From IMG/VR virus record IMGVR_UViG_3300006056_000031, positions 15,911 to 79,910 of that record: 64,000 bases of DNA; one strand, given 5' to 3'. This DNA is from a virus. Taxonomy: Duplodnaviria > Heunggongvirae > Uroviricota > Caudoviricetes. Made by a program: the position numbers and the translations under genes. Positions 11,031-45,165 of this stretch are shown here, piece after piece (position 1 is the stretch's first letter; each line of letters starts with the position of its first letter). Under the pieces are notes generated by a model. The model did no database searches. It was not told the DNA's origin and worked only from the letters and a program-made list of their open reading frames with translations.

Positions 11031-12122
11031 ATGGAAAGAAAACTTGCAAGTATTAGAAAGATTAGTGATCTTCAACCAATCGAAGGTGCGGACCTTATAG
11101 AATTGGCAATTGTGGATGGATGGAAAGTTGTAGTAGCCAAAGAAGTTGGCCATAAGATTGGAGACTTTGTGATCTATTGCGAGGTTGATTCATTCCTCCC
11201 AATCCGCGAGGAATTTGAATTTCTTAGAAAAAGTTCGTACAGAAAGATAATCGATCAGGAGGGATTCAGACTTAAAACCATAAAATTAAGAGGACAAATT
11301 TCTCAGGGACTTATCCTTCCGCTTTCCATATTGGAAGGTGAAGAAGAGGACGAAAAACTTGGTCATCTAGAAACTCCTGATGGACCAATTTATCAATTAG
11401 GACCATATGAGTGGGCTCTTGTTATAGAGGAAGGTGCAGATGTTACCAACATGCTTGGTATTGTTAAATGGGATCCACCTATGCCTGCATGTCTGTCTGG
11501 TATAGCAAAGGGTAACTTTCCAAGCTGGGGGAGAAAAACTGACCAGGAGAGAGCACAGAATCTTGTTTCAGAGATTGGTTTGGAGCTATCAAATGATTCG
11601 AAATTTGAAATATCTATAAAATTGGATGGTACATCGATGTCAGTAGGAAAGAATGGTAGCGATATAGTAGTTTGTTCAAGAAATTTGATTCTTAATACTG
11701 AGCAGGAAGGAAATACTTTAATTGATGTTGCTAAATCTCTAGGATTGTTGGATAGAATTAGTGAATTTGGTGATATAATGATATCTGGGGAATTGTGTGG
11801 TCCTGGAATACAAGGGAATCGTGAAAAACTTGGTAAACATAAATTTTTTGTATTTGATATATTCGACGTTAGAAGTGGGGAATATATCAGTCCTGAAGAA
11901 AGAATAAAGATTGTAGAATCTTTGGGTTTAGATCATGTTCCAATTATTCATAAATCGGTAAAGCTTAATGAGATTGGATTAAATTCACTTGATGATATAT
12001 TAGCTTATGCAAACGGAGAATCCTTAAATTCGAAGATTAGAGAGGGACTAGTTTTTAAGAAGGTTGATGGATCTTTTAGCTTCAAGGCAATAAGTAACGA
12101 ATTTCTTCTTAAATTTGAGTGA
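11031..12122 (+). CDS. ATP-dependent RNA ligase (Rnl2/Rnl5-like nucleotidyltransferase) with N-terminal Myf/EMAP-like tRNA-binding OB domain
   Basis: Motif I KxDG (SIKLDGTSMSV). FVFDIFDV, ISGELCGPG and the motif-V-like EGLVFKKVDG are ordered as in the covalent nucleotidyltransferase ligases. The N-terminus (IRKISDLQPIEGADLIELAIVDGWKVVVAKEVGHKIGDFVIYCEVDSFLP) matches the tRNA-binding Myf-domain pattern. Confidence 0.7.
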   Translation: MERKLASIRKISDLQPIEGADLIELAIVDGWKVVVAKEVGHKIGDFVIYCEVDSFLPIREEFEFLRKSSYRKIIDQEGFRLKTIKLRGQISQGLILPLSILEGEEEDEKLGHLETPDGPIYQLGPYEWALVIEEGADVTNMLGIVKWDPPMPACLSGIAKGNFPSWGRKTDQERAQNLVSEIGLELSNDSKFEISIKLDGTSMSVGKNGSDIVVCSRNLILNTEQEGNTLIDVAKSLGLLDRISEFGDIMISGELCGPGIQGNREKLGKHKFFVFDIFDVRSGEYISPEERIKIVESLGLDHVPIIHKSVKLNEIGLNSLDDILAYANGESLNSKIREGLVFKKVDGSFSFKAISNEFLLKFE

Positions 12123-12159
12123 TCTGATTGGTGTCGATATATAAGTAAAAATAATATTT

Positions 12160-12966
12160 ATGAATAATGATTTTTATGTTTATGTTTATATTGACCCAAG
12201 AAATAATGAACCATTTTATGTAGGTAAAGGTAAAGGAAGAAGATATAAACATCATCTGAATTCTGCAAAATCTGATCTCCATTACAAGGAATCAAATAGA
12301 ATTAAAATTAATAAAATTAGGAAAATATTAGAGTCCGGAATGGAACCAATTATAGAGATATTTAGCGATCTTAGCGAGAATGATTCATTCATTATGGAGA
12401 TGAATCTGATATCCAAATATGGTAGGATGGATCTAGGAACAGGAACATTGACAAATCTATCCGAAGGTGGTGAAGGGCAATCAGGATGGATTCCTGGTGA
12501 TGACTATCGAAAAAGAATGTCAGATTCGACAAGGGGTGAAAAAAATGGAATGTTTGGAAAGAATCAAAGTAATGAGACCAGGGAAAAAATAAAAAATAAA
12601 GCATTGGGTAGGAAGCTATCCGAATCAACAAGAAAAAAAATGTCAGAGCAAAGAATTGGTGAGATGAATGGATTCTTTGGTAAAAAACACACGAATGAAT
12701 CTTTAAAAATAATATCCATCAATAGGAAGGGTAAATGTAAAGGATCCGATAATAGTAGTTCTAAAAAATTTCTATTTATTTCTCCGGAAGGATCAAATTA
12801 TATTATAAACGGTGGATTTGAAAATTTCTGCAATAATAATCAATTATCGCACGGAAGAATGAAAAGATTTATAAATTCTGGAAAAATACCAGAATGTAAC
12901 AAATCTCATAATATGACAACACAATTAACTATTAACTGCTTTGGGTGGGAAGTCAAAATAATATAA
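12160..12966 (+). CDS. GIY-YIG homing endonuclease with NUMOD3-like repeats
   Basis: N-terminal YVYVYIDPRNNEPFYVGKGKGRRYKHH...E (GIY-YIG). Three G(E/M)xNxxFGKxxxxET/SR DNA-binding repeats, as in I-TevI-type enzymes. Confidence 0.8.
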   Translation: MNNDFYVYVYIDPRNNEPFYVGKGKGRRYKHHLNSAKSDLHYKESNRIKINKIRKILESGMEPIIEIFSDLSENDSFIMEMNLISKYGRMDLGTGTLTNLSEGGEGQSGWIPGDDYRKRMSDSTRGEKNGMFGKNQSNETREKIKNKALGRKLSESTRKKMSEQRIGEMNGFFGKKHTNESLKIISINRKGKCKGSDNSSSKKFLFISPEGSNYIINGGFENFCNNNQLSHGRMKRFINSGKIPECNKSHNMTTQLTINCFGWEVKII

Positions 12967-12967
12967 T

Positions 12968-13381
12968 ATGATATGCAATAACATTTTACCAGTATCACCA
13001 TATAGAGAAAGGGATGAAATCCAGCTGATGATCTTTCAGGGGAGAAAGGCTATTTTCAAATGTGATTATTGTGAAAAATGCCAAAGTACAGAAATATCAC
13101 AAATACGATTTAGAGGAGACGATAACTTGGAGATCCATTATAGTAATTCTTATATGCCGATAACGGGAAAGATAGTTATGAGATGCCCGGATCATCGCGT
13201 AAGTGACGATACCATCGAAGTTGAAACAATATACCATCCAAATCCAATAGAAATGACATACGGATGGGAAAGGAGAATGATACAAGGACCACCAATAGCT
13301 GAAAATGTGATATCACATGCATATGGAAGGGATAGAATTATATTTGATGAGAATGATTTTTTATGGATAACAATCAAATAA
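12968..13381 (+). CDS. hypothetical Cys-rich protein (putative zinc ribbon)
   Basis: 137 aa with CDYCEKCQ ... RCPDHR. Confidence 0.45.
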   Translation: MICNNILPVSPYRERDEIQLMIFQGRKAIFKCDYCEKCQSTEISQIRFRGDDNLEIHYSNSYMPITGKIVMRCPDHRVSDDTIEVETIYHPNPIEMTYGWERRMIQGPPIAENVISHAYGRDRIIFDENDFLWITIK

Positions 13382-13563
13382 TATTAGGAAAAATGGCTGC
13401 ACTGAAAGATTATGGTGATTATATTGGATCATCTCTAAATGACACCAATAATACCATTTTCGAGCTTGAGAAAAGAGTCTCAGAATTGGAAGCAATTCTC
13501 CTTATGGTAAAGGATATAGATTGGAAAACAATTAGATTTAAGGAGAGAGCCGAAACTTTTTAA
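13363..13563 (+). CDS. hypothetical protein
   Basis: ORF of 66 aa overlapping the upstream ORF. Confidence 0.4.
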   Translation: MDNNQIILGKMAALKDYGDYIGSSLNDTNNTIFELEKRVSELEAILLMVKDIDWKTIRFKERAETF

Positions 13564-13631
13564 TCGATAGATTGTATAATATAACATACGGGGAAATCCG
13601 AAAACCGTCAATAGAGTAGGAAAATCAAAAT

Positions 13632-16913: not shown

Positions 16914-17267
16914 TTGAAAACTAAAGGACAAATTGAATTCTCAGAATTCTTAGAAATAGAAAATAGATTAGATATCCGCATAGGTCAAATCTTGACCGCT
17001 GAGCGTGTACCTAAGAGTGATAAACTTTTGAAGTTATCAGTTAAATTTGATATTGGGTTAGATGGGTTGCTAACGGTGGTTACGAATATTGGTGAAACCA
17101 GAACTCCAGAATCTTTAGTAGGTTTAACGATGCCATTTATCGTAAACCTTAAACCTTCAAAAATGATGGGTGTTACCAGTGAAGCTATGATTATAGTCGG
17201 TACTAGTCTTGAAGGTCAAATGCAAGTGGGATTAGACTACTTTGCTATCGGAACCAAAATACTTTAA
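16914..17267 (+). CDS. tRNA-binding domain protein (CsaA/EMAP/Myf fold)
   Basis: LDIRIGQILTAERVPKSDKLLKLSVKFDIG...LVGLTMPFIVNLKPSKMMGVTSEAMII matches the tRNA-binding OB domain consensus (I.G.I...E..P.SDKL..L.VD.G ... NLKP.K..G..S.GMi). Confidence 0.75.
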   Translation: MKTKGQIEFSEFLEIENRLDIRIGQILTAERVPKSDKLLKLSVKFDIGLDGLLTVVTNIGETRTPESLVGLTMPFIVNLKPSKMMGVTSEAMIIVGTSLEGQMQVGLDYFAIGTKIL

Positions 17268-17270: not shown

Positions 17271-18014
17271 ATGCCAAAATTATATAAAGTTGGAGGCTGC
17301 GTTAGGGATGCTATCCTTGGTATTGATTCCAAGGATATAGACTTCACTTTCGTGCTAGATGATCTAAACCAAACTGTCGAGGAGGGATTCCAAAAAATGG
17401 ATGATTGGATGACTGAAAAAGGATTTGAGATATTTCTAAGAGTCCCAGAGATGTACACCATCCGTGCTAGATTTCATAAAGGAGATCCAAACGAGAAACT
17501 TGTTGCTGATTTTGTGATGGCAAGAAAGGAAATGGGATATAGCGACGATAGCAGAAGACCAGTGTTGAAACTAGGTACCTTGGCCGATGATCTTATTCGT
17601 AGAGATTTTACGATCAATGCAATGGCTGAGGACTCGGAAGGGAATCTAATTGATTTATTTGGTGGACAGGATGATCTGAGAATAGGAATACTAAGAACAC
17701 CTAAGCACCCGGATATAACATTCTACGAGGATCCACTACGATTACTTAGAGCACTTAGATTCACCATAACGAAGGATCTTGTTATGCATGATGACATCTG
17801 GGAAGCTATGAAGAACCCAGAATTACTCAAAAAACTAGAACTCACTGTTAGCGGGGAAAGAATTAGGGAGGAGATTTCTAAGATGATGAAACACGACACA
17901 GTTAGAGCAATCCTGCTAATAAAAGATTGCGATGAACACATGGGATTAGGGTACAAATTATTAAGAGTGCTATTTAAAAACGGTCTTTGGCTAAAACCAA
18001 CATTTGAGCAATGA
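17271..18014 (+). CDS. tRNA nucleotidyltransferase (CCA-adding enzyme) head/neck domain, lacking the HD domain
   Basis: LYKVGGCVRDAILGIDSKDIDF corresponds to the class-II CCA enzyme GGxVRD...D.D motif. RRDFTINAMAED...EDPLRLLRALRF matches the RRD.TINA and EDPLR..R..RF motifs. At 247 aa there is no room for a C-terminal HD domain. Confidence 0.8.
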   Translation: MPKLYKVGGCVRDAILGIDSKDIDFTFVLDDLNQTVEEGFQKMDDWMTEKGFEIFLRVPEMYTIRARFHKGDPNEKLVADFVMARKEMGYSDDSRRPVLKLGTLADDLIRRDFTINAMAEDSEGNLIDLFGGQDDLRIGILRTPKHPDITFYEDPLRLLRALRFTITKDLVMHDDIWEAMKNPELLKKLELTVSGERIREEISKMMKHDTVRAILLIKDCDEHMGLGYKLLRVLFKNGLWLKPTFEQ

Positions 18015-18283
18015 AAGGAAATCTTAAATTAGTAGATGGTGTTTGGATGATGTCATACGACAATCAAGAAATCCCTGTTGATTCGAGCAGCTTCATTAAA
18101 ATAAAATCAATGAATCACGACAACTCGCAGGAGTTTGAATTCGAAATAAGTCACCGCATGAGAGAATCATTCACAGAAATAGCGAATCGATGTATATCAT
18201 ACTGCGAAAGATCTGGCCCATGCGGATGTGACAGGTATTGGAAAAGCGAAGCAAATCACATAAAAACAGCAAAGCTACTATGA
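18011..18283 (+). CDS. hypothetical protein
   Basis: ORF of 90 aa with an ATGA overlap. Confidence 0.4.
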   Translation: MKGNLKLVDGVWMMSYDNQEIPVDSSSFIKIKSMNHDNSQEFEFEISHRMRESFTEIANRCISYCERSGPCGCDRYWKSEANHIKTAKLL

Positions 18284-19080
18284 GCGAGCCAATTAAAATT
18301 GTAACAGCCGGGCTATACGGTAAAAGTTCAAGCGATGATGCATTCAAAAAGATGCTGGAATCATGGAGTCCATTGGATTCATTGGGTGATGGAGAGCCGG
18401 AGGAGTTAACACAGGAGGAAATCAATGAGCGACAAGCCTATATTGAAGACACCAAGAATGGTTACTCTGAAGCTGCTATTCATAAAATTCTTAAAGATCT
18501 AAAAGTTGACGAACCGGTTCTCAACATATACAGATACGGAAGTCGAATCTACGGAACTGCTGATCAGAATTCGGATCACGATTACATTATAGTTACCAAG
18601 GGTGCTATGCTTAAGAGTGGTGCTTTTAAACAGAACGCCATCTCCAGTGAGAATCGTAACATCCAGGGGATTCTTTATTCAAGAAGTGGATTTACTGATG
18701 CTATCAACAACTATGACATCAGTGCTCTAGAATGTTTATCCCTACATCCCAACGATGTTCTTATGAGCACATGGCCATTCAAGGTTCAGAAGTGGGATAA
18801 TAAGGTGATGATCAAGAAGATCATATCTAAGGTTTCTGCATCATGGCACACTGCTGATATGCAGGCAAAGGATGGATTCAGAGATCGTGCTAAGAAAGGA
18901 ATTTTTCATGCACTTAGAATTCTACATTTCGCTTTGCAATTGAAGGTGAATCAAAGAATTGATGATTTCGGTTGTGTTAACTACATCTGGGAGGATTTTA
19001 AATTGATACCTGATGATGAATTTGACACCAGAGACTACATCAAGGAAAGAGATGAACTAATGGAACAATTGAGATCATGA
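18280..19080 (+). CDS. minimal nucleotidyltransferase (pol-beta superfamily) with possible C-terminal HEPN-like helical domain
   Basis: YRYGSRIYGTADQNSDHDYIIV gives the GS-x9-13-D-x-D NTase signature. The C-terminal RDRAKKGIFHALRIL fits an Rx4-6H HEPN-like pattern. Start moved to ATG 18280 (ATGA overlap). Confidence 0.55.
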   Translation: MSEPIKIVTAGLYGKSSSDDAFKKMLESWSPLDSLGDGEPEELTQEEINERQAYIEDTKNGYSEAAIHKILKDLKVDEPVLNIYRYGSRIYGTADQNSDHDYIIVTKGAMLKSGAFKQNAISSENRNIQGILYSRSGFTDAINNYDISALECLSLHPNDVLMSTWPFKVQKWDNKVMIKKIISKVSASWHTADMQAKDGFRDRAKKGIFHALRILHFALQLKVNQRIDDFGCVNYIWEDFKLIPDDEFDTRDYIKERDELMEQLRS

Positions 19081-20301: not shown

Positions 20302-20550
20302 ATGAGAATAAAAGCAATTTATAAAAAAAACCTGAAAATGCCAGAGGGAAAAGTGGCATCACAGGTTGCACATGCAGTTAAGAATCTTGGTATCACACCA
20401 ATCGATTCGGTGATAGTTGTTCTTGCAGTTTCCAATAAGAAATTTGCGGAACTTGTTGCTGAGCACCCAAACTGTTATGTACAAACCGATCTTGGTTTAA
20501 CCTGCGTGGAAAGTGGTACACGTACTGCTGCTGCATGGATAGAAGAATAA
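20302..20550 (+). CDS. peptidyl-tRNA hydrolase, PTH2 family (compact)
   Basis: LKMPEGKVASQVAHAV matches the PTH2 motif (L.MgkGKiAAQc.HAa). YVQTDLGLTCVESGTRTAAAWI corresponds to the PTH2 C-terminal motif D.G.TqI..GS.TvlAigP. Confidence 0.65.
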   Translation: MRIKAIYKKNLKMPEGKVASQVAHAVKNLGITPIDSVIVVLAVSNKKFAELVAEHPNCYVQTDLGLTCVESGTRTAAAWIEE

Positions 20551-20553: not shown

Positions 20554-21000
20554 ATGACGAATAAAGTTAACATAAACAACAGAAAAGCAAAGTTTGATTA
20601 CGAGTTCATTAGAACTCTAACCGCTGGAATGCAGTTAATGGGTTCGGAAGTAAAGGCTATCAGAGATGGTAGAGTTTCATTTGTTGATTCCTACTGTTAT
20701 TTCAATGGAAAGGAACTTTTTCTGAAGAATCTAAACATTACACCAATATCCTCGACATATACACACGAGCCAAACAGAGAAAGAAAATTACTTCTTAATA
20801 GAAGTGAACTTAAAAAGTTACAGAATGACATGGATAGAGGAATGACTATAGTTCCATTCCGAATTTTTACTAATGAGAAGGGTTTGATTAAATTGGATAT
20901 TGCTCTTGCGAGGGGAAAGAAGACCTATGATAAAAAGAAAAAAATAAGGGAGGAGGATATAGAGAGGGATACGAAAAGATCCATCGCCGGGGATATATAG
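20554..21000 (+). CDS. smpB: SsrA-binding protein SmpB
   Basis: AKFDYEFIRTLTAGMQLMGSEVKAIRDGRVSFVDSYCYF...ELFL.N..ITP..........ERKLLLNRSELKKL....DRGMTIVPFRIF.NEKGLIKLDIALARGKKTYDKKKKIREEDIER is collinear with the SmpB family over its full length. Confidence 0.8.
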   Translation: MTNKVNINNRKAKFDYEFIRTLTAGMQLMGSEVKAIRDGRVSFVDSYCYFNGKELFLKNLNITPISSTYTHEPNRERKLLLNRSELKKLQNDMDRGMTIVPFRIFTNEKGLIKLDIALARGKKTYDKKKKIREEDIERDTKRSIAGDI

Positions 21001-21019: not shown

Positions 21020-22054
21020 ATGAGATACGATAAAAAATATTTGATTAATTATCTAATAGAAAATTATAGCAAAAAGAGCAAATCTGAAATAATCAATGAA
21101 CTTGGTCTTTCCTGGTCATATTTACAAAGAATAGCATCATTAAATGGTATAAAGAGGGAATTTTCGGAAAATAAAAATGTAGGTAAATATTCGATACTAA
21201 CAAACTATGATGATATAACAAGTTGTTATTGGTTGGGATTTATGCTAGCTGATGGTAACATAAGCAAAAAAAATAATATGATGCTTAATTTAGCAATAAA
21301 GGATAAAGATCATATACTCAAAATAGAAGATCATGTTGGGAAAACTAGCGTTTATTATCAAAATGATAATATAATAAGGGTTGTTTTAAATGACTCCGGA
21401 ACATTTAGAAAAATAGCATCCGATTTTGAATGGAAAACAAACAAAACTAAAAATCCACCAGTCCTACCAGAATCAATGCAGCAAGATTGTATATTTTCGA
21501 TGGTTGTTGGATTTATTGATGGCGATGGATGCATTGACGAAAGACATGGACTCGCCGTTAAATGCGATGGCTCGTGGCAAGACATGCTTAATTATTTTTA
21601 TTTGATATTAACAGGAGATTCTAAAAAATATCAAATTGATAATAATGGATATTCAATATTTCGCATAGGAAACATGATAAAACTAAAGGATATAAAGAAA
21701 AAAATTATTGAGCTTAATATTCCGGCTATGGATAGAAAGTGGGATAAAGTGGATATTAACAGGATATACAAATCGGAGAAAGAATCTATTATTTCAGAGA
21801 TGCTAAATAATGGAAATAATATGAATGCAATATTGGAAAAAACAGGATTTAGTAAAACCTTATATTATTCAGTTGCAAATAAGAAAGGTGTAAATATAAG
21901 AAAAAATAAAATATCCAATGATCAATTCATGTCAATAGTAACAATGTACAACAATGGAATTAATCCGTCAGAGATGTCCAGATCTATTGAATTGAGTATA
22001 TCCACAATATATAGGCAGATTAAAAAATATAAAGCAACTAAAAGAAGTTTATAA
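21020..22054 (+). CDS. LAGLIDADG homing endonuclease (two-motif, monomeric type)
   Basis: Two LAGLIDADG motifs: CYWLGFMLADGNIS and FSMVVGFIDGDGCID. Confidence 0.75.
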   Translation: MRYDKKYLINYLIENYSKKSKSEIINELGLSWSYLQRIASLNGIKREFSENKNVGKYSILTNYDDITSCYWLGFMLADGNISKKNNMMLNLAIKDKDHILKIEDHVGKTSVYYQNDNIIRVVLNDSGTFRKIASDFEWKTNKTKNPPVLPESMQQDCIFSMVVGFIDGDGCIDERHGLAVKCDGSWQDMLNYFYLILTGDSKKYQIDNNGYSIFRIGNMIKLKDIKKKIIELNIPAMDRKWDKVDINRIYKSEKESIISEMLNNGNNMNAILEKTGFSKTLYYSVANKKGVNIRKNKISNDQFMSIVTMYNNGINPSEMSRSIELSISTIYRQIKKYKATKRSL

Positions 22055-22607: not shown

Positions 22608-23105
22608 ATGAAAAATATAATGAGACAAGACATACTAGATATTAAAAAAATAGCAATAGAAACTTTTGTCATGGACAAGGATTCCATCCATGGGATTCAA
22701 CATTGGGATGAGGTCTATGGGAATGGCATGATGTTATCACAACAGCTGGGAGTTGACCAATTAGTTGTTGGTCTTTTTGCATACCTACATGATTGCAAAA
22801 GGGAAGATGATCATCAGGATCCTGAACATGGTGACAGAGCTGCTGATTTTGTGGTTTTTTTAAGAAACAGCGGAAAGTTGGAATTCCTAGAACATAGCCA
22901 ATATATCCAGCTATGGAAAGCCTGCTTACAACACCACAAGGGTGTAGTTGACATCGAGGACATCACAATAGGTGCCTGCTTTGATGCTGACAGAATAGAG
23001 CTAATCCGATGTGGTATAGTACCCAGGGTTGAACTAATGAGTACACCAATGGGAATTAGAATAGCACAGAAAATGAAAGAATTACAAACATTTAAAGGAC
23101 ATTAA
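22608..23105 (+). CDS. HD-domain phosphohydrolase (resembles the HD domain of bacterial CCA-adding enzymes)
   Basis: IHGIQHWDEV...LFAYLHDCKRED...HGDRAADF gives an H...HD...D metal-binding pattern. It aligns with the E. coli Cca HD region (IDTGIHTL...ATLCHDLGK). Confidence 0.55.
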   Translation: MKNIMRQDILDIKKIAIETFVMDKDSIHGIQHWDEVYGNGMMLSQQLGVDQLVVGLFAYLHDCKREDDHQDPEHGDRAADFVVFLRNSGKLEFLEHSQYIQLWKACLQHHKGVVDIEDITIGACFDADRIELIRCGIVPRVELMSTPMGIRIAQKMKELQTFKGH

Positions 23106-23899: not shown

Positions 23900-24484
23900 A
23901 TGGATTTGACAACCTACGTAGACTGGTGCATAGCACAACACGATAATACCAACCACATGTATGACAAATATTTGCCATATTCTTTCCATTTAAGAATGGT
24001 TGATAGAGCAGCACAACAATTCGAGCATCTTTTGGATGATACGAAAGACATGCAAACTGGTAAATCTAGAGAGATCCTGGATGGAAATAGATTAGGATTC
24101 GTTTCTCTTAGAATGGCTTGTAGAAAAGCTGGCTGGGGACATGATACAATCGAGGACACCAGAACATCATATAATGACGCAGTTAACCATCTTGGTAAAG
24201 ATGCAGCTGATATTGTTTATGCTGTTACTAACGAGAAAGGTAAGAATCGTTCGGAAAGAGCTAATGACAAATACTACGAGGGAATAGTAGCAACACCAGG
24301 AGCGGTTTTCGTTAAGCTTTGCGATCGTATTGCTAATGTTCAGTATGGTAAAATGACAGGAAGTGGTATGTACGACAAGTACAAAAAAGAGAATGCTAAC
24401 TTTATTACCAAGCTTGGTGGCGATGATAAGGATCATAAATTAGCTCCAATGTTCGAATATTTATTAAACCTTTTTAAAGACTAA
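23900..24484 (+). CDS. small alarmone hydrolase (Mesh1/SpoT-type HD-domain (p)ppGpp hydrolase)
   Basis: RMACRKAGWGHDTIEDT...AVNHLGKDAADIVYAVTNEKG...KLCDRIANV matches the SpoT/RelA hydrolase-domain signature HDxxED(T) and its flanking helices. Its 194 aa is typical of single-domain SAH enzymes. Confidence 0.65.
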   Translation: MDLTTYVDWCIAQHDNTNHMYDKYLPYSFHLRMVDRAAQQFEHLLDDTKDMQTGKSREILDGNRLGFVSLRMACRKAGWGHDTIEDTRTSYNDAVNHLGKDAADIVYAVTNEKGKNRSERANDKYYEGIVATPGAVFVKLCDRIANVQYGKMTGSGMYDKYKKENANFITKLGGDDKDHKLAPMFEYLLNLFKD

Positions 24485-25912: not shown

Positions 25913-26161
25913 ATGGCAAAGAATAAGGAACAGGCGGAGAGATACAAAGCAGAAGGACTTAGACGAATGCTTGCTAGAAAAAAGCAAAGGTTCGAAAAGT
26001 ACAGAACACTTGCTATCGAAGCTAGTAATTTAGGAATTCCTTTAGCAGGTGCAAGACTTGGAGGATCCTGGCCAGACCCAGATTCACCAACAGGATATTC
26101 ACAGAAATGCTCATATGAGGTATGGGGAACATGTCAATCACCTTGTAATGGTGATTGTTAA
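25913..26161 (+). CDS. hypothetical basic protein
   Basis: 82 aa, Arg/Lys-rich at the N-terminus and Cys-rich at the C-terminus. Downstream of promoter box 25885-25893. Confidence 0.45.
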   Translation: MAKNKEQAERYKAEGLRRMLARKKQRFEKYRTLAIEASNLGIPLAGARLGGSWPDPDSPTGYSQKCSYEVWGTCQSPCNGDC

Positions 26162-26168
26162 TAAGATT

Positions 26169-26225
26169 TGGGATATAGCTTAGTGGTAGAGCTTTACAGC
26201 GGAGGTTCAATTCCTTCTATCCCGA
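26169..26225 (+). tRNA. tRNA-like element lacking an anticodon arm (about 57 nt; acceptor + D arm + T arm only); possible tRNA pseudogene or anticodon-less tRNA mimic
   Basis: The acceptor stem TGGGATA/TATCCCG, a canonical D arm (GCTTAGTGGTAGAGC) and a T arm (GGAGG-TTCAATT-CCTTC) are contiguous. Only 8 nt lie between the D and T arms. Confidence 0.4.
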
Positions 26226-26424: not shown

Positions 26425-26548
26425 GGGGGAATAGACCAACGGTATGGTACATCTCTAACTTACATCATAGATAGAATCTATGACGTCTTCACACAAAGGC
26501 GAAGTTTAGCTGATTCAAGTGTCACAGGTTCGATTCCTGTTTCCCCCA
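26425..26548 (+). tRNA. tRNA-like gene, oversized (about 124 nt) between D arm and T arm
   Basis: Perfect acceptor pairing GGGGGAA/TTCCCCC. T arm ACAGG-TTCGATT-CCTGT at 26524-26540. A 3-bp D stem of the type-II kind. The interior contains a 7-bp/3-nt-loop hairpin (26466-26482), but no canonical 5+7+5 anticodon arm could be placed by eye. Confidence 0.4.
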
Positions 26549-26735: not shown

Positions 26736-26812
26736 GATTGGAAATAGCTTGATTGTGGCGCGACGCCTATTGGGAGCAGTGGTAAAAATGGGTTCGAATC
26801 CTGTTCCAATCA
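26736..26812 (+). tRNA. tRNA gene (77 nt; isotype undetermined)
   Basis: Acceptor GATTGGA/TCCAATC. T arm ATGGG-TTCGAAT-CCTGT at 26788-26804. Total length is canonical. The D and anticodon arms are not cleanly assignable by eye. Confidence 0.55.
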
Positions 26813-26896
26813 CGAAACACGTAAAACGCAAACGCACGGGCCCTAGATGCATAAGGTGAGGCGCACCCCGTATACTGGATGACCTCTGTTTTTAAC

Positions 26897-27003
26897 GACC
26901 AGAATGCAGGGATGGAACCCTGCACATTAGAAAGTTCCTATAAAGCAATGGTTGATGTCGTGGAGCTTTGACATTAACTGCGGGTTCGATTCCTGCACTG
27001 GTC
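26897..27003 (+). tRNA. tRNA-like gene, oversized (about 107 nt)
   Basis: Acceptor GACCAGA/ACTGGTC (6 of 7 bp). T arm GCGGG-TTCGATT-CCTGC at 26979-26995. A 7-bp interior hairpin at 26903-26922. Confidence 0.35.
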
Positions 27004-27016
27004 ACAAATGCAAATG

Positions 27017-27083
27017 GGGAGATATGCTTAAAGTCACGTGGAGGTAAAGCAATAAGATTGGAGGTTCGAGTCCTTCTCTCTCC
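27017..27083 (+). tRNA. tRNA-like gene (short, about 67 nt)
   Basis: T arm GGAGG-TTCGAGT-CCTTC at 27059-27075. 3' acceptor TCTCTCC pairs with GGAGATA at 27017-27023 (6 of 7 bp). Confidence 0.35.
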
Positions 27084-27298
27084 ACAAAAAGAAAATGTTC
27101 TTCGTGGTGAATGAACGGTATTTTATAGGATGGACGCATTGGTAATAGTTGGGTAAGGAGAGAACTGCAGTGGGCTGCTGCACTACACCTCAAGAAAAAT
27201 CGCAAGATAAAACTGCCAATTTAGATAGAAAGAACTAAGCCATCCAATAAAATGCCAAAGAAACAATTTTAAAATAATTGTTATTGTTATTTTTTTAA

Positions 27299-31648: not shown

Positions 31649-32155
31649 ATGGAGGAAAAAATTAAGATTATATTTCTCGATATTGACGGCGTATTGAATG
31701 TTTATTCCCACGATCATGATGAATTTGGAAGTCAATTTCACAAGCATTTCGTTGATAACCTTGGGATGATAATAGAAGAGACAGGAGCCAAGATAGTGAT
31801 CTCATCAACATGGAGATACGCAGGATTGGAGAGAATGAAAGAGATGTGGCAGAAGAGAAATCTGCCAGGTGAGGTTATTGATGTTACACCAGACTGTACA
31901 TATTTATATAATGAGGGACTACTTGAGCTCACCACGAGAATTGAAAGAGGCCATGAGGTAGAGTATTGGTTAGATGAAAACAGGAAGAATGTTACTAAAT
32001 ATGTTATTCTTGACGACAATAGTGATTTTTTACCCCACCAACTCGGTAATTTTGTTATGACATCAAATAATATCAATCATCCGGATTGTGTGGATATCGG
32101 ATATGGTTTAACTAAAGAATGTTCAAAAAAAGCAATTAGAATATTAAATGGCTAA
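31649..32155 (+). CDS. HAD-superfamily phosphatase (DxDGV motif; Pnkp-phosphatase/5'-nucleotidase-like)
   Basis: N-terminal KIIFLDIDGVLN is HAD motif I (hhhDxDGT/V). A downstream ...VISSTWR... suggests motif II (S/T). Its size fits a stand-alone small HAD phosphatase. Confidence 0.5.
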   Translation: MEEKIKIIFLDIDGVLNVYSHDHDEFGSQFHKHFVDNLGMIIEETGAKIVISSTWRYAGLERMKEMWQKRNLPGEVIDVTPDCTYLYNEGLLELTTRIERGHEVEYWLDENRKNVTKYVILDDNSDFLPHQLGNFVMTSNNINHPDCVDIGYGLTKECSKKAIRILNG

Positions 32156-32444
32156 GGAAGAAAAAGACGAATACTGGAGATGTGTGATTGGACCAGTTAA
32201 GAGAAGAGAATTACCAAACGGAGCAGATTTTCCATTAAGGTGGGCTGTTAGAGAAAAATTCGAGGAGATGATTGGTAGAGATGCTGAAACATGTTCATCC
32301 GGATGGGGCATGGATGAAGAAACTAGATCAGTTTGTTCCAGTATAGGCTTGTTGAGCATAACAGACCCGTCGGGGGTTAAACTGAAAATGATAAAGGAAA
32401 TATTGGATTCTGAGTTTCTTGATTTTCCAAACCTTAAGAAATAA
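32148..32444 (+). CDS. hypothetical protein
   Basis: ORF of 98 aa. Confidence 0.45.
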   Translation: MAKEEKDEYWRCVIGPVKRRELPNGADFPLRWAVREKFEEMIGRDAETCSSGWGMDEETRSVCSSIGLLSITDPSGVKLKMIKEILDSEFLDFPNLKK

Positions 32445-33167: not shown

Positions 33168-33216
33168 GATTGTGGTGATATATAGAAATAAAGATTCATA
33201 TGTATTTCTATGTATA
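33168..33216 (+). promoter_or_regulatory. imperfect inverted repeat spanning the start codon of the GIY-YIG gene (possible translational occlusion hairpin)
   Basis: TATATAGAAATA-aagattcatATG-TATTTCTATGTATATA. The ATG (33200) lies inside the predicted stem-loop. Confidence 0.35.
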
Positions 33217-34135
33217 TAAAATAACTAACACTGAACCTCTTGATGAAAGAAAATTTTATATTGGTGTAAGAACATCAAAGGTTGAACCATTATTGGATAT
33301 AAAATATTGGGGTTCATCAAAATCACTGAGCAGGGAGATAAGGGAGAGAGGAATTTCAATATTTAGGAAAGAAATACTTTCAATTTTTAACGACAGATCA
33401 GCAGCGGTGGAGGAAGAAATAAGACTCCATATGCTCTATAATGTTGATAAAAATTTGGAATATTATAATTTATCAATAAGTGGATCAATAGAATATGATG
33501 CTTCTGATAGGGTTAGCGTATTCGATAGCGAAGGTAAAACCCTAAGTGTTTCCACCAAAGATCCGAAATATCTATCGGGAAATTACAAATCCATAACCCA
33601 TGGATTTGTAACGTGTAGAAATGATAAGGGTGAAAATGTTAGAGTTAAGAAGGATGACTTCTACTCCAATGAAAAGTATACGAGTCCAAACGTAGGAATG
33701 GTTCCAGCAAAAGATTTTAACGGAAATACTTTCCTTGCAAATAAAAATGATCCAAGGTTACTAAATGGTGAGATAATGAGTGTTCATAAAGGTAAAGTTA
33801 TGTGCACAGACCAATGTGGAAAAAATAGATTAGTTACGTCTGATGAATTTAAAAACGACCCAAATCTGTTTGGCGTATGTAAAAATAAAATCTCGGGAAA
33901 TAAAAACGGGAGAGCTAAAATTATAGATATATTTAATAATAGTGGTGATCTTATTTATAGATGCGATGGAAATTTTAAAAAAGTTTGTATGGAAAATAAA
34001 TTTCCATTCGTGCCATTAAAAAAGTCCCATATAAATGGGGGTGTACCTATATACCAATCAAAAAAAGCAAAAACTGATTCAATTAAAAATGGTACGCAAT
34101 CCTATATAGGATGGTACGCAAAAGAAATTAAATAA
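33200..34135 (+). CDS. GIY-YIG homing endonuclease
   Basis: N-terminal FYVYKITNTEPLDERKFYIGVRT...E (GIY-x10-YIG). Long C-terminal DNA-binding region. Confidence 0.75.
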   Translation: MYFYVYKITNTEPLDERKFYIGVRTSKVEPLLDIKYWGSSKSLSREIRERGISIFRKEILSIFNDRSAAVEEEIRLHMLYNVDKNLEYYNLSISGSIEYDASDRVSVFDSEGKTLSVSTKDPKYLSGNYKSITHGFVTCRNDKGENVRVKKDDFYSNEKYTSPNVGMVPAKDFNGNTFLANKNDPRLLNGEIMSVHKGKVMCTDQCGKNRLVTSDEFKNDPNLFGVCKNKISGNKNGRAKIIDIFNNSGDLIYRCDGNFKKVCMENKFPFVPLKKSHINGGVPIYQSKKAKTDSIKNGTQSYIGWYAKEIK

Positions 34136-35063: not shown

Positions 35064-35381
35064 ATGGCAGATAAAATATTCATATTCATCCTGCTAATAC
35101 ACTTCCTAGCAGATTTTGCGTTACAGACCGACGACCAGGCAAAGGGTAAAAGCACGGATACAAAATGGTTAACGTATCACGTTGCTGTTTATTCGATTAT
35201 ATGGTTGATGGCATCTTGGTTCTATTTTGGTGATTTTAGACAAGCAGTATTCTTTGCTACCGTGACATTCATTTGTCACTGGTGTACAGATTTTCTTACA
35301 AGCAGAATTGGTAAACCTTTCTGGGATATGAGCCATTGGTTCTTAATAAATTATTGGAAAAATATATGGAATCCGATATAG
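35064..35381 (+). CDS. hypothetical membrane protein
   Basis: 105 aa with three hydrophobic segments. Confidence 0.45.
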   Translation: MADKIFIFILLIHFLADFALQTDDQAKGKSTDTKWLTYHVAVYSIIWLMASWFYFGDFRQAVFFATVTFICHWCTDFLTSRIGKPFWDMSHWFLINYWKNIWNPI

Positions 35382-38956: not shown

Positions 38957-39127
38957 ATGCCAAGAATAGAAATCAAGGATTCTAAATTGAGCTCGATTAT
39001 CAAAAAGTGCGAGTCCTTAAAATTGGACACAAAAAAAGTTAAAATAGAAACAGCAACATTCGAGGATTTAACAAATCCCGATGAATATTATACTAAACTA
39101 TATTTAAGATATGAAAACAACAAATAA
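38957..39127 (+). CDS. hypothetical small protein (56 aa)
   Basis: ATG at 38957 fills the gap. Overlaps the 39111 start by 17 nt. Confidence 0.3.
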   Translation: MPRIEIKDSKLSSIIKKCESLKLDTKKVKIETATFEDLTNPDEYYTKLYLRYENNK

Positions 39128-39584
39128 ATACGTGTTTTTCTGGAATGGAATTTACTCGCAATGGCATAAAGCAAATATGACCATTGGCAAAATAGAATAT
39201 AATTCATGCGAGCAATACATGATGCACCAGAAGGCATTGTTATTTGGCGATGAAGAAACTGCAGAATTAATCATGCAGGAGAAAAATCCAAGGGAACAAA
39301 AGAAATTCGGAAGGATGGTTAAGAACTTTGACAAATCAATTTGGGAAAGGAATTGCTTAGCTATTGTATATGAAGGAAATCTTGCTAAGTTCTCACAAAA
39401 CGAGGATCTAAAAGAGGAGCTTCTCGCAACGGACAATAGGATTCTTGTTGAAGCAAGTCCAGTTGATAGTATCTACGGGATAGGATTGGCTGAGGATGGA
39501 AGGGGCATCGAGGATCCATCAAATTGGAGGGGTCTTAACATTCTGGGATCAATAATAACTATGGTTAAAAATGAATTAAGATAG
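39111..39584 (+). CDS. NADAR-domain protein (YbiA-like, DUF1768)
   Basis: YVFFWNGIYSQWH...EYNSCEQYMMHQKALLFGDEE.....NPREQKKFGRMVKNFDKSIWERNCLAIVYEGNLAKFSQNEDLKEELLATDNRILVEASPVDSIYGIGL is collinear with the NADAR/YbiA consensus (FfwG..S.FS ... sEq..qA.K ... P...K.lGr ... W...r..vm...n.aKF.Q...L...Ll.Tg...LvE.s..D..WG.G). Confidence 0.65.
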   Translation: MKTTNKYVFFWNGIYSQWHKANMTIGKIEYNSCEQYMMHQKALLFGDEETAELIMQEKNPREQKKFGRMVKNFDKSIWERNCLAIVYEGNLAKFSQNEDLKEELLATDNRILVEASPVDSIYGIGLAEDGRGIEDPSNWRGLNILGSIITMVKNELR

Positions 39585-40394
39585 AATATATTTTTCACAA
39601 ATAAATCCCTTGTGTGATTTATATTTTTTTGCTGATACTTTATACATTCCTGATTCTGATAATCCGTTTCTTCTACAAAATAGTGATAGATTATCGACAG
39701 CAAATTTCTCTCCTGATTCTATATTAGTTATTATATAATTATTTGGACACCATACATTATTAATATGTACGGTGTCCATTTTATTAAATATCTCGAATTT
39801 TCTGGGTAGATATACGGTTGCTTCCGTATAGATGTACTTTCTGAATTCGTGCGTATATTTATCTATATTTAGATTTGCAAGATCTTTATTTTTATGATCA
39901 ATGCTTATATTACCATAACCCAAATAGACAAGTAGATCCTCTATAAATCTTACATTCGATATTATTGATACCCGGTAGGAATTACCACCTCTGTGTGATA
40001 TGCACCCATCGCCATCAAAATATCCTCTTATAAAATGATTCATAAGACTATGACTGATATTAGGAAGTCTTATTTTAAATCCCTTATTCGTAACACATCC
40101 ATTATCTATTAAATCCAGAACCATTCTCTTACATCCTATTGTTATCTGACAATATGGATTAGCGACAGTATCATATATTTCTATTCTATGATTGGATCCT
40201 ATAGATTCTCTAAATTTCTCCATGTGGCTGAAATCTTTGATTGCTAGTTTTAATCTAGCAAAATTTAGCGTGTTTGATCTTATATACCCGTCAGCATACA
40301 GGAATCCAAGCCAATATGCTTTTTCCTCAGAATCTATGCTACTAAAAAAATTTTCATCAATATTATACTTTTTCATCCGCTTTATATTTTTCAA
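39576..40394 (-). CDS. LAGLIDADG homing endonuclease (minus strand)
   Basis: Two motifs: AYWLGFLYADGYIR and IRGYFDGDGCIS. The annotated first codon is TTG. The first in-frame ATG is at 40376 (MKKYNIDENFF...). Confidence 0.7.
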   Translation of the reverse strand: MKNIKRMKKYNIDENFFSSIDSEEKAYWLGFLYADGYIRSNTLNFARLKLAIKDFSHMEKFRESIGSNHRIEIYDTVANPYCQITIGCKRMVLDLIDNGCVTNKGFKIRLPNISHSLMNHFIRGYFDGDGCISHRGGNSYRVSIISNVRFIEDLLVYLGYGNISIDHKNKDLANLNIDKYTHEFRKYIYTEATVYLPRKFEIFNKMDTVHINNVWCPNNYIITNIESGEKFAVDNLSLFCRRNGLSESGMYKVSAKKYKSHKGFICEKYILS

Positions 40395-41730: not shown

Positions 41731-41732
41731 TT

Positions 41733-43433: not shown

Positions 43434-43445
43434 ATGATATAAACT

Positions 43446-43902: not shown

Positions 43903-44234
43903 AAAAAAGAGGTCTTGCGGTAAAAAAAGATGACAGATGGTACATTTCCATCTGCTGTGGTGGATGTAATGGTATTGACGAGGTTTGTAAGCCAATTGAA
44001 TATAAACTACATCCTTCAGACCACCAGGACTTTGACCTTATACACAAGAATGCTACTTCAGTCCAAGATTTACCTCTATGGACATTTGTTCTTCTCGTCG
44101 AAGAGGAGGATTTTGTGGGAGGGTGTGGGCATACAGGGTATCCGACATACACAACTTACGCAAAGCTTTCTAATAAATTATATACCCCAATATTCATAAC
44201 CATAAAAGATCTAGATAATCTAATAGACTTCTAA
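43896..44234 (+). CDS. hypothetical Cys-rich protein
   Basis: 112 aa with ICCGGCNG...C and GGCGH. An alternative-frame ORF at 43930..44199 competes for this interval. Confidence 0.4.
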   Translation: MLEKRGLAVKKDDRWYISICCGGCNGIDEVCKPIEYKLHPSDHQDFDLIHKNATSVQDLPLWTFVLLVEEEDFVGGCGHTGYPTYTTYAKLSNKLYTPIFITIKDLDNLIDF

Positions 44235-44567
44235 ATGAGAAAAATAATTTACCTAGCATCACCTTATAGCCATCCAGATGACAAAAAAAGGGAGGAGAAT
44301 TTCGAGAAAATATCAAAAATAGCAGCGGATCTTTGTGCGAATGGGAACGTAGCATTTTCACCCATAACATACGGGCACACCCTTACACAATTTAAAGAAA
44401 TGCCAACGGACTGGCCATTCTGGCAGAATTTCTGTCTAAGCTTTCTTCAAGTTAGTGATGAGCTACATGTCTGCAAAATGGAAGGCTGGAATCATTCAAG
44501 AGGTGTCGCAGAAGAAATAGAATTTGCGGTCAAGGAAGGCATCGAAATAAAATATATTGATTGTTAG
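44235..44567 (+). CDS. nucleoside 2-deoxyribosyltransferase-like protein (DUF4406-type)
   Basis: KIIYLASPYSHPD...AFSPITYGH...W..WQNFCLSFLQVSDELHVCKMEGWNHSRGVAEEIEFAVKEGIEI resembles phage DUF4406/Rcl-like proteins (iYlAsPysh ... fsPi ... GW..SrG...E...A...g). Confidence 0.45.
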   Translation: MRKIIYLASPYSHPDDKKREENFEKISKIAADLCANGNVAFSPITYGHTLTQFKEMPTDWPFWQNFCLSFLQVSDELHVCKMEGWNHSRGVAEEIEFAVKEGIEIKYIDC

Positions 44568-44571
44568 TTAA

Positions 44572-44609
44572 AAATTTCCAAATAAAATTTTTTTATTTGG
44601 AATTTTTTT
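44572..44609 (+). terminator. rho-independent terminator
   Basis: AAATTTCCAAATAAAA-ttttt-TTATTTGGAATTT followed by a T run. Confidence 0.55.
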
Positions 44610-44625
44610 TATATTTGCCTAACAA
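44596..44625 (+). promoter_or_regulatory. phage promoter (-7 box 44610-44618)
   Basis: tatttggaattttttttatatttgcctaac. The upstream element overlaps the terminator stem. Confidence 0.5.
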
Positions 44626-44634
44626 TTAAAAGGA

Positions 44635-45165
44635 ATGAAAAAAGCAATACTTTTTATCGGCTTACCTGGATCAGGAAAAACATCCATAGTCAATAGAGAC
44701 TATGCCGGAGACTATGCTATAGTTTCTGCTGACCTCATTAAACAATCCCATAAGGATTATGACCCCAAGGATCCGGAACCCCTTCACCAATGGAGTGTTA
44801 AAGAAGCGGAAAGACAAATGCGTGAACTATCTGATAAAGGGATTTCTATGTGCATGGACTCCGGCGGAGTTAATAACTCCTACTCATCAAGAATTCATTT
44901 ATTGGAAAGTATGAAACGTGAACATGCAATAGTTTTAGTTACGTCCTGTCTAAGAGAAGGAAGCGATTTTGAGTGGCTAATTGAAACTGCAAGATTAACC
45001 TCAGCAATGGGAGGTATGTGTTTCAAACTCCAAAGATCCCAGTATGGATCACAACACTTCAACTGGGAAGGTTGGAAAAGAATAATAGCATCCTTAGAAC
45101 CATCAGTCGCCAAAATGAAAGAGTATTATGGCTACGATGAAGATGGGGACGAGGATGATATATAG
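44635..45165 (+). CDS. polynucleotide 5'-kinase-like P-loop kinase (T4 Pnk kinase-domain-like)
   Basis: N-terminal MKKAILFIGLPGSGKTS resembles the T4 Pnk kinase N-terminus (MKKIILTIGCPGSGKST). Walker A is at the extreme N-terminus as in Pnk/AAA_33 kinases. At 176 aa it is kinase domain only. Confidence 0.55.
   Translation: MKKAILFIGLPGSGKTSIVNRDYAGDYAIVSADLIKQSHKDYDPKDPEPLHQWSVKEAERQMRELSDKGISMCMDSGGVNNSYSSRIHLLESMKREHAIVLVTSCLREGSDFEWLIETARLTSAMGGMCFKLQRSQYGSQHFNWEGWKRIIASLEPSVAKMKEYYGYDEDGDEDDI

Follow-up and report, generated by a model that had tools for sequence, protein, structure and literature searches.

What a tailed phage would do with a set of tRNA-related proteins is the question raised by a 64,000-nucleotide stretch of viral DNA (positions 15,911 to 79,910 of IMG/VR record IMGVR_UViG_3300006056_000031; the whole stretch is hereafter the window), which encodes an RNA ligase, a phosphatase, a kinase-family protein, a CCA-adding enzyme, a tRNA-binding protein, SmpB and peptidyl-tRNA hydrolase-like proteins. 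A sequence-only reading had taken these as a dispersed but unusually complete toolkit for tRNA repair, and all nine open reading frames (ORFs) that it named were found on the + strand, at or near the coordinates it gave. With moderate confidence, and as judged from sequence, the region would instead be an island for tRNA 3'-end maintenance and ribosome rescue that serves phage tRNA-like RNAs, not a kit for repairing anticodon-nuclease damage. In predicted function, the block consists of enzymes for CCA addition, small-alarmone-hydrolase (SAH)- and HAD-type phosphatase chemistry, ester hydrolysis and SmpB rescue, interleaved with tRNA-type genes that need CCA. Enzyme sets of this sort are already known from huge phages; the armless tRNA-like genes among them are previously undescribed.

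SmpB-based retrieval recovered two IMG/VR relatives, L052 (434.5 kb) and L053 (430 kb), with SmpB proteins 92–93% identical to that of the window, and the nearest named relatives of SmpB and the ligase were phage LR756501 (735 kb) and the Lak megaphages, indicating that the window comes from a huge phage of about 430 kb. The relatives of 430–434 kb are IMG/VR records 3300032236_001850 and 3300034116_002156. Together with a third relative, L054, these genomes and the window form the clade compared below. The source assembly was a 136.6-kb metagenomic contig (ENA ERZ27257534 k141_654739), and the DNA read was the window with 10 kb on either side (~84 kb of the ~430-kb genome).

The T-loop motif GGTTCRANTCC occurred 10 times in the window, against 0.22 expected, with nine occurrences on the + (coding) strand in two ORF-poor islands, A (26169-27255) and B (61874-63000). 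These islands comprise eight non-canonical tRNA-like genes, none followed by an encoded CCA, and matches of the units to the Rfam tRNA model reached 29–48 bits. A canonical anticodon stem with a 7-nt loop was present in none of them, two (u1 and u5) being armless and the others carrying inserts of 36–67 nt or larger. ARAGORN found no tRNA or transfer-messenger RNA (tmRNA) in the window, its ±10-kb flanks or the relatives, and a standard or permuted tmRNA, sought in the islands with both ARAGORN and Rfam, was rejected. The units and one further structured RNA are as follows.

26169..26225, + strand: u1, a tRNA-like gene of 57 nt that keeps the acceptor, D and T arms and has 1 nt where the anticodon arm would be, no CCA (Rfam tRNA 43.6 bits, model positions 27-43 deleted)
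26425..26548, + strand: u2, tRNA-like and 124 nt long, its anticodon arm replaced by a structured insert of ~67 nt (Rfam tRNA 31.4 bits; fold z = -2.7; kept in L052 and L053)
26736..26812, + strand: u3, a 77-nt unit of acceptor and T arm, GATTGGA/TCCAATC (motif scan; kept in L053)
26897..27004, + strand: u4, a 108-nt unit of acceptor and T arm with a long internal hairpin domain (motif scan; fold z = -6.5)
27016..27084, + strand: u5, a 69-nt tRNA-like gene with a GGGG start, G3:U70 and A73, the anticodon arm reduced to 3 nt, no CCA (Rfam tRNA 29.3 bits; fold; kept in L053)
27095..27255, + strand: a conserved structured non-coding RNA, followed by a hairpin and T-run at 27296-27340 (best-conserved stretch of island A in the four genomes)
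61874..62030, + strand: island B unit 1, a 157-nt unit of acceptor and T arm with a large insert (motif scan, 7/7 acceptor pairs; fold z = -2.2)
62560..62662, + strand: island B unit 2, a 103-nt tRNA-like gene with a ~14-bp extended helix and 13-nt loop in place of the anticodon arm (Rfam tRNA 48.1 bits; fold z = -3.6)
62907..62999, + strand: island B unit 3, a ~93-nt unit with two T-arm-like hairpins, a GGAAGGT motif and 6/7 acceptor pairs (motif scan; fold no better than shuffles)

Island A was syntenic downstream of SmpB in L052-L054, with modules gained and lost. The acceptor stem of u1 changed in a compensatory manner, from U6-A67/A7-U66 in the window to C6-G67/G7-C66 in L052, and the acceptor strands of u4 varied as well (ACTGGCC in L053; GGTCAGT/ACTGACC in L054). 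The RNA at 27095-27255, ~130–160 nt in length, had a closing stem with three compensatory pairs (GGAUGG/CCAUCC in the window, GAAUAG/CUAUUC in L054) and no Rfam match at E ≤ 1; a conserved micro-ORF inside it was rejected, as its frame is disrupted by single-nucleotide indels in L052 and L054. A strain variant (L002) was identical across island A and thus uninformative for covariation. A homologue of the double-T-arm unit of island B was found in L054 at 11576-11667. Scans for sigma-70 promoters and intrinsic terminators around both islands gave nothing above chance, and u1 and u5 had no annotated counterparts in INPHARED.

The u1-type pattern, defined as a D arm directly followed by a T arm, was found on at least 44 IMG/VR contigs, many with differing, fully paired acceptor stems, whereas 596 Gb of archaeal and bacterial genome sequence gave only six contigs, each from a metagenome-assembled genome; the class is thus essentially viral. 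Across 22 distinct sequences, 96.6% of stem cells were paired, compared to 56% in shuffled sequences, and covariation was 1.03 against ~0.23 in both controls, in rows pre-selected for at least six of seven acceptor pairs; part of the covariation signal could stem from different ancestral tRNAs. Literature searches turned up no account of armless tRNA-like genes encoded in phage genomes. In the window, u1 lies immediately downstream of a protein-coding gene.

25913..26161, + strand: a small basic protein of 82 aa with an invariant C-terminal SPTGYSQxC..GxCxxPCNGDC (family alignment A7)

The stop codon of this gene lies 7 nt before u1, giving a module at 25913-26225, and the same family adjoins u1-type armless genes on their 5' side, with gaps of 3–11 nt, in at least 10 contigs of divergent large phages, window included (the others being L014, L017, L022, L030, L045, L049, L052, L181, and L183). 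The family is rare, with 41 clusters among 1.84 billion representatives; it has a K/R-rich N-terminal helix and its C-terminal motif runs to the stop codon, and no Pfam or PHROG match was found. A second close junction occurs in island B, where an ORF at 62051-62557 (predicted secreted or lipoprotein-like, with a signal peptide, MKKALIALALILAINSIYS...) stops 2 nt ahead of unit 2. Such junctions might reflect a partnership between RNA and protein, a signal for processing by RNase P/Z, or protection of the mRNA by a CCA-tailed 3' end. A tRNA-like fold directly following a coding or functional RNA is familiar from the 3' tRNA-like structures of plant RNA viruses and from the mascRNA of MALAT1. 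The ORF stops 2–7 nt before island B unit 2 and u1 resemble that arrangement and could likewise mark an RNase P/Z site or a CCA-tailed protective end, whereas the window belongs to a DNA phage and its units, as putative RNAs, have no anticodon arm.

The other armless unit, u5, has the stem GGGGAGA...UCUCUCC-A and combines G3:U70, A73 and a missing anticodon arm, the features of the tRNA-like domain (TLD) of tmRNA. By this analogy, u5 is a candidate mini-tmRNA without a coding sequence (CDS), bearing the alanine identity elements G3:U70 and A73; at only 69 nt, it has no mRNA-like domain (resume codon, tag ORF, pseudoknots). CDS-less tmRNAs exist in jakobid mitochondria, some plastids and mycobacteriophage DS6A (PMC11915505). 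Like u5, these measure ~65–70 nt, have G3:U70 and A73, and comprise a tRNA-like domain alone, lacking a tag frame, whereas u5 differs in its 4-bp D-like stem with a large loop and in the absence of an analogue of the tmRNA 'UUCGAC' D-loop. The window phage additionally has genes for SmpB and, next to it, a Pth2, an arrangement for which no report was found for DS6A. A search for the short GGGG...G3:U70...A73 pattern returned at least 35 further viral contigs, some with compact tRNA-Ala genes and others with armless units carrying the tmRNA 5' signature. Among viral contigs, L071, L075, L178 and others contained genes of 56–64 nt (GGGG..UGGGUUCGAC, G3:U70, no coding region), apparent TLD-only mini-tmRNAs in many unrelated contigs.

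The protein genes between the ligase and island A that bear on the tRNA acceptor end or on ribosome rescue are the following.

16914..17267, + strand: stand-alone tRNA-binding OB protein of the Trbp111/CsaA/MetRS-C type (PF01588 1.2e-17; TIGR00399 metG C-terminal domain 3.5e-21)
17271..18014, + strand: short class II tRNA nucleotidyltransferase, 247 aa, head and neck with motifs A-E (PF01743, NCBIfam, phrog_24229)
18280..19080, + strand: Pol-beta-type nucleotidyltransferase with a GS..G..SDHD motif, directly 3' of the CCA enzyme (PF01909 4.5e-4, at cutoff; phrog_388 1e-8)
20302..20550, + strand: minimised Pth2-type peptidyl-tRNA hydrolase, 82 aa (PF01981 2.2e-5; family profile; AF2 and Foldseek)
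20554..21000, + strand: SmpB, tmRNA-binding ribosome-rescue factor (PF01668 1.6e-47; NF003843 164.7 bits, cutoff 130; TIGR00086 over cutoff)
23900..24484, + strand: probable Mesh1/SAH-type HD hydrolase, between SmpB and island A (phrog_990 1.1e-21; PDB profile matches)

The CCA-adding enzyme had been predicted as a head domain, which agrees with its match to the PolyA_pol head (PF01743, 1.7e-20) and to a 245-position phage profile (phrog_24229, 2.8e-59). NCBIfam models for CCA tRNA nucleotidyltransferases were matched at values down to 1.7e-31, compared to 2.4e-20 for pcnB, with every score under the equivalog cutoffs. The motifs GGCVRD/DID, RRDFTINA, DLFGGQDDL, EDPLRLLRALRF and GERIREE could be read from the translation. 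The protein ends at 247 aa and its matches span the first ~220 of 360–470 model positions, so that the body and tail domains, which hold the tRNA elbow, are missing. The stand-alone tRNA-binding protein, also predicted correctly, is encoded directly upstream, its stop 3 nt ahead of the CCA enzyme start.

The stop of the mini-Pth2 gene is likewise 3 nt before the SmpB start, so that both pairs have operon-like spacing. The GK...D...T residues of Pth2 have been implicated in catalysis, and in 31 members of the mini-Pth2 family the corresponding K17, D63 and T67 were invariant. When searched against the PDB, the family profile matched Pth2/Bit1 exclusively, with GKVASQVAHA aligning with GKIAAQVAHA of Ta0108. 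Foldseek comparison, a check that the sequence-only reading had proposed, was run on an AF2 model of the 82-aa ORF (pLDDT 89), and its best 14 PDB matches were all Pth2/Bit1 (probability 1.00, TM 0.67–0.82). The fold and the GK...D...T residues are thus common to mini-Pth2 and archaeal/eukaryotic Pth2 (Bit1), whereas the phage protein, which has lost the helical segment that follows helix 1, is 82 rather than ~115 aa long. The family is metagenome-wide, with at least 339 clusters of ~82 aa on large contigs (up to 376 kb), and is 72–91% identical across at least 120 clusters among those listed.

SmpB, whose prediction at this position was borne out, was 89–93% identical in L052-L054. The best PDB matches of the SAH-type protein were all Mesh1, SAH or Rel hydrolase domains, weak (1e-6 to 1e-5) and limited to residues 57-173 (3nr1 1.7e-6, 6yvc 2.4e-6, MESH1 5e-6, 6z3o, a SAH, 8e-6; spoT_relA 5e-6), and there was no Pfam match. 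Its homologues lie 1.4 kb from SmpB in L055 and within the tRNA region of LR756501. This gene and the Pol-beta nucleotidyltransferase, which is 86–98% identical in L052-L054, belong to the same block and had been overlooked by the sequence-only reading.

The order ligase, CCA enzyme, Pol-beta nucleotidyltransferase, mini-Pth2 followed by SmpB, and RNA island A was constant in the clade. In the distant LR756501 (735 kb), an Rnl5 ligase, SmpB and a SAH-like gene are embedded in a 49-kb region holding 33 canonical tRNA genes; the association of such enzymes with a phage tRNA gene region is therefore conserved, and is read as ancestral. Compared to the canonical tRNAs of LR756501, the RNA genes in the clade of the window have become non-canonical. 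Two Rfam tRNA matches in LR756501 positions 172000-221000 (contig L059) were 111 and 118 nt long (32051-32161 and 35097-35214), and insert-bearing tRNA-like genes may thus occur in that phage too.

The intact enzyme chemistry (CCA addition, a SAH-type 3'-pyrophosphatase and Pth2, all as predicted) points to the acceptor end of tRNA rather than to anticodon-loop cleavage, and suggests how the island may work. The RNA islands would be transcribed and then cut by host RNase P/Z, and the phage CCA enzyme would complete the 3' ends, with the tRNA-binding protein perhaps providing the elbow contact otherwise made by the missing body and tail. Armless, and with G3:U70 and A73, u5 could be charged by host AlaRS and, with phage SmpB, enter stalled ribosomes as a CDS-less mini-tmRNA; mini-Pth2 would then release the peptide, either from the peptidyl-RNA that leaves the ribosome or from ordinary products of peptidyl-tRNA drop-off. 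A tag-less rescue module made of u5, SmpB and mini-Pth2 is plausible on these sequence features. The SAH-type hydrolase, the HAD phosphatase and the CCA enzyme would keep 3' ends free of pyrophosphate and phosphate and the CCA intact, and the Rnl5 ligase would seal nicks in base-paired RNA, the net effect being that translation capacity is sustained through a long infection.

Several observations weigh against an island of this kind. The Rfam tmRNA model misses u5, its sole match in the islands (10.7 bits) falling on a T arm, and u5 does not have the classic tmRNA 5' signature 'UGGxUUCGAC' that is found in some other viral mini-tmRNAs. It occurs in the window and L053 only and is absent from L052 and L054, and the tRNA-binding gene adjoins the CCA gene in the same two of the four clade genomes. 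In other viral contigs, the mini-tmRNA-like genes have no SmpB within ~7 kb, and outside the clade of the window no SmpB or other toolkit gene was found next to armless or G3:U70 units. Canonical tRNAs or a standard tmRNA may be encoded outside the ~84 kb read, in which case u5 would be unnecessary as a partner of SmpB. Lastly, part of the gene proximity could be incidental, because the block is broken up by homing endonuclease genes and one resembling a transposase gene.

The proposal of end healing and sealing was based on three genes.

11031..12122, + strand: Rnl5-family ATP-dependent RNA ligase, N-terminal OB and C-terminal nucleotidyltransferase domains, KLDG motif I (Pfam, NgrRnl, TIGR02306, phrog_968)
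31649..32155, + strand: HAD-family phosphatase with a DIDGV motif, of the 'Swiss Army Knife' type found in RNA repair (HAD_SAK_2 PF18143 5e-26; phrog_1818 1.5e-28)
44635..45165, + strand: deletion-fusion remnant, the N-terminal half of a Pnk/zeta/PSTK-clade kinase joined to the tail of an unrelated gene (family profile, relative L060, AF2)

The first of these is an RNA ligase, as had been predicted, with matches to PHA02142-OB (PF21189, residues 5-98) and RNA_ligase (PF09414, residues 191-353) at 3e-35 and 4e-27, respectively, and to phrog_968 at 1.5e-82. It was assigned to the Rnl5 family, because it is a full-length homologue of Naegleria NgrRnl (5cot, 1.6e-66; aligned over residues 3-99 and 134-361) and passes the cutoff of the DRB0094/DraRnl equivalog (TIGR02306, 153.6 bits against 151.15). 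Motif I, SIKLDGTS, aligned with TVKLDGSS of NgrRnl, including the adenylylation lysine of KxDG, and an Arg near the N-terminus and the Asp of an EVDSF segment aligned with adenylylation contacts of NgrRnl. No match to Rnl1 was found in profile searches (Pfam, NCBIfam) or in the NgrRnl comparison. Orthologues in L052-L054 were 58–60% identical.

The N-terminus of the ligase had been interpreted as a Myf/EMAP-type tRNA-binding OB fold and the fusion as unusual. The first interpretation was rejected, as the module has no detectable similarity to the tRNA-binding protein of the window and the OB module of Rnl5 enzymes works in lysine adenylylation (PMC7261155); nor is the fusion unusual, OB plus nucleotidyltransferase being the family-defining architecture of Rnl5, a family with 385 phage records. 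Compared to DraRnl and NgrRnl, with which it shares full-length homology, the OB module and KLDG motif I (PMC7261155, PMC4408790, PMC5397189), the ligase shows no structural difference, and its novelty lies only in the context of phage tRNA service. Rnl5 enzymes seal 3'-OH/5'-PO4 nicks in duplexes having an RNA 3'-OH strand (PMC4408790); they are template-directed nick sealers whose physiological role has been called uncharted (PMC7261155, PMC5397189).

The HAD phosphatase was recovered as predicted, with its DxDGV-type motif. It is a separate gene, unfused to the kinase, and by sequence carries the DxDG expected of the 3'-phosphatase in a T4-type pathway; an orthologue in L054 is 81% identical and lies 5 kb downstream of SmpB.

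The presumed Pnk-like 5'-kinase turned out to be a truncated chimera. Alone, the ORF gave a weak AAA_33 match under the cutoff; homologues of ~155–187 aa yielded a family profile that reached zeta toxin (5e-12), PSTK (8e-9), the CthPnkp kinase domain (4e-8) and T4 Pnk (6e-6), so that 'Pnk-clade' is a fair label for the family. The window protein matches the family through residue ~87 only, keeping the P-loop and Asp33, and lacks the conserved VDTPL..CLERN..RERKVPE segment with the lid arginines; rescue by a frameshift was rejected, the missing motif being found in no other frame. Residues ~82-176 are instead 76–83% identical to the C-terminus of unrelated proteins (P0003/P0004). In the relative L060, an intact kinase gene (76-567) is followed by two small genes, NAPRTase, a 336-aa gene and an M28 peptidase, whereas the chimera directly abuts the M28 peptidase, with the junction at a common YS(S/L)RI microhomology. 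A ~3.6-kb deletion thus took the C-terminal half of the kinase, the two small genes, NAPRTase and most of the 336-aa gene, leaving an in-frame chimeric ORF that is also present in an independent NCBI assembly (99% identical). The AF2 model had pLDDT <50 and was disordered past residue ~105, and on its sequence the chimera is probably inactive. As the catalytic half is deleted, the window encodes no 5'-end healing activity.

In phage T4, Pnkp and Rnl1 repair the anticodon loop of tRNA. An equivalent here would combine kinase, phosphatase and ligase, followed by CCA restoration, to reverse cuts by anticodon nucleases (PrrC, RloC, VapC, colicins), and all three components are present as families: an RNA ligase, a HAD_SAK_2 phosphatase and a P-loop kinase related to Pnk, with intact kinase homologues in related phages, some of them fused to an NT5C-type HAD in the domain order of T4 Pnkp. 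Such a pathway is nonetheless improbable for the window, in which the kinase has lost the lid arginines to a ~3.6-kb deletion and is fused to foreign sequence, the ligase is an Rnl5 duplex nick sealer (PMC7261155, PMC5397189) rather than Rnl1, and ligase, phosphatase and kinase are separate genes, 20 kb and 13 kb apart, in no single operon. The nearest solved relative of the kinase family by sequence is moreover zeta toxin, which acts on a sugar nucleotide and not on RNA. Since the 5'-healing kinase is destroyed and the ligase belongs to a different family, the island is not a T4-type system for repairing anticodon breaks, and the healing and sealing once described as unusually complete is not so. 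A looser interpretation, in which independently acquired auxiliary genes of a huge phage have no functional connection and the tRNA-like units are decaying tRNA pseudogenes, would fit the many unrelated ORFs and several homing endonucleases interspersed, the gain and loss of RNA modules among close relatives and the already wrecked kinase gene. It is the least probable of the explanations weighed here, given that the armless form is kept with compensatory stem changes within the clade and over at least 10 divergent contigs with the same upstream small-protein family at a gap of 3–11 nt, that mini-Pth2 is so well conserved among the clusters listed, and that enzyme order is constant in the clade and enzyme–tRNA co-location recurs in LR756501.

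Counter-defense at the acceptor end is an attractive idea and a somewhat better candidate than either, although still unlikely. The island would then protect or imitate the tRNA 3' end against host toxins that act there (toxSAS/CapRel, which pyrophosphorylate the CCA, MenT-type nucleotidyltransferases and GNAT acetyltransferases): the SAH would remove pyrophosphate, the CCA enzyme would rebuild the end, Pth2 would take off aminoacyl groups that are blocked, and the armless RNAs would be 'top-half' decoys. SAH enzymes do allow tRNA to be aminoacylated again after toxSAS has pyrophosphorylated its CCA (bioRxiv 10.1101/2021.04.30.441581), and toxSAS toxins act in antiphage immunity (PMC11245113, PMC9712102). 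The SAH-type gene lies next to SmpB and the CCA enzyme, and the armless units retain exactly the acceptor/T/D 'top half' and are concentrated in viral rather than genome contigs. This counter-defense role is, however, deduced from enzyme families; SAHs also simply degrade alarmones, decoys would need high expression, and a decoy role leaves the coupling of u1 with the small-protein gene unexplained. An extension of the preferred reading, a 3'-end maintenance and ribosome-rescue island, can be offered more readily, if only tentatively: the armless tRNA-like genes may be a functional, virus-specific RNA class served by the phage CCA enzyme, SmpB and mini-Pth2, in which the u1 type works with the small basic Cys4 protein (as a ribonucleoprotein or a tRNA-like-tailed mRNA), the u5 type is a tag-less tmRNA, and the tRNA 'top half' is a scaffold for stable small RNAs or acceptor-end decoys.

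Two further genes had been counted in the toolkit.

22608..23105, + strand: HD-superfamily phosphohydrolase of a YedJ-like group (family profile A5)
63774..64000, + strand: PTH2-fold-like ORF, continuing to 64124 beyond the window as seen in L006 (PF01981 1.8e-5; phrog_1866 1.2e-13)

The HD protein gave no match in a single-sequence Pfam search, but its family profile reached 2pq7 (2.1e-8), 3djb (1.3e-6) and YedJ (8.6e-5), and 13 of 27 homologues matched PF01966, with H28, H61-D62 and D126/D128 invariant (H..HD..D). Its assignment to the HD superfamily thus stands, the group being YedJ-like and not specifically the Cca repair domain. Within the clade, this gene was detected in L052 and L053, and the HAD gene in L054. 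Of the two PTH2-type hydrolases proposed, the one upstream of SmpB is well founded in its fold; the one at 63777-64000 has neither a canonical start nor the GK lysine. The latter ORF begins ATG ACT TAG, with no ATG, GTG or TTG start past the stop; the source assembly has no gene call here, and Tyr substitutes for the lysine (HPGYQ for GKGK). It may be a gene disrupted by a nonsense mutation, use a non-canonical start (ATT/CTG), or depend on local TAG read-through, its Lak relatives being phages that recode TAG; no sign of TAG recoding was seen elsewhere in the window. Translation table 11 gives normal gene density and the ORFs of interest close with ordinary stops, consistent with the standard genetic code; stop-codon reassignment, known from TAG-recoding Lak phages, was rejected for the window, recoding of TAG or TGA giving similar, non-specific gains.

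The window has a G+C content of ~35% and ~110 genes, nearly all on the + strand and the majority without a Pfam match, and no near-identical DNA was found among annotated phages. It is indeed enriched in genes for tRNA ends and stalled ribosomes, but these are less dispersed than had been thought, all of the toolkit except the kinase remnant and the second PTH2-like ORF lying within 11–32 kb. Genes for homing endonucleases (GIY-YIG, LAGLIDADG, SegE-like) are dense, at 12160-12966, 21020-22054, 33200-34135, 39576-40394 (- strand) and 63053-63727, and at 4403-5188 of L007; one lies directly 3' of the ligase and one directly 3' of SmpB, the latter with no detectable homologue in L054. The NADAR family has been linked to the reversal of ADP-ribosylation, and a NADAR-domain protein (PF08719) at 39111-39584, adjoined by a LAGLIDADG endonuclease on the opposite strand, is a possible counter-defense gene. 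Upstream of the CCA gene region in L054, positions 4026-4060 matched the Rfam DUF805b RNA motif at 36.5 bits, barely over the gathering score.

Translation genes of huge phages, among them those for CCA-adding enzymes, SmpB and tmRNAs, were described in a 2020 survey (Al-Shayeb et al., 2020, PMC7162821), so the set is not novel in concept, and the protein genes of the window are a further example of this known tendency. The window resembles the repertoires described there, and those of Lak phages, in its huge genome, its phage CCA enzyme and SmpB, and the tRNA-type RNA genes nearby, but differs in having no canonical tRNA or standard tmRNA in 84 kb and, instead, armless or insert-bearing units invisible to ARAGORN; mini-Pth2, the SAH-type hydrolase, Rnl5 and HAD_SAK_2 were not found in the part of the survey covered, which used ARAGORN for tmRNAs. 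As ARAGORN cannot detect them, armless tRNA-like genes are missing from phage annotations based on it. Two over-readings are corrected here: the ligase fusion is not 'unusual', and the 'complete' repair pathway has a probably dead kinase. The more valuable result lies on the RNA side, where tRNA-like genes with structure-preserving evolution have SmpB, a CCA-adding enzyme and a conserved small-protein gene as neighbors. If functional, the armless RNAs would give phage CCA enzymes and SmpB a defined substrate, would extend the idea of a tag-less tmRNA past one mycobacteriophage, and would raise the question of how phages exploit the acceptor half of tRNA.

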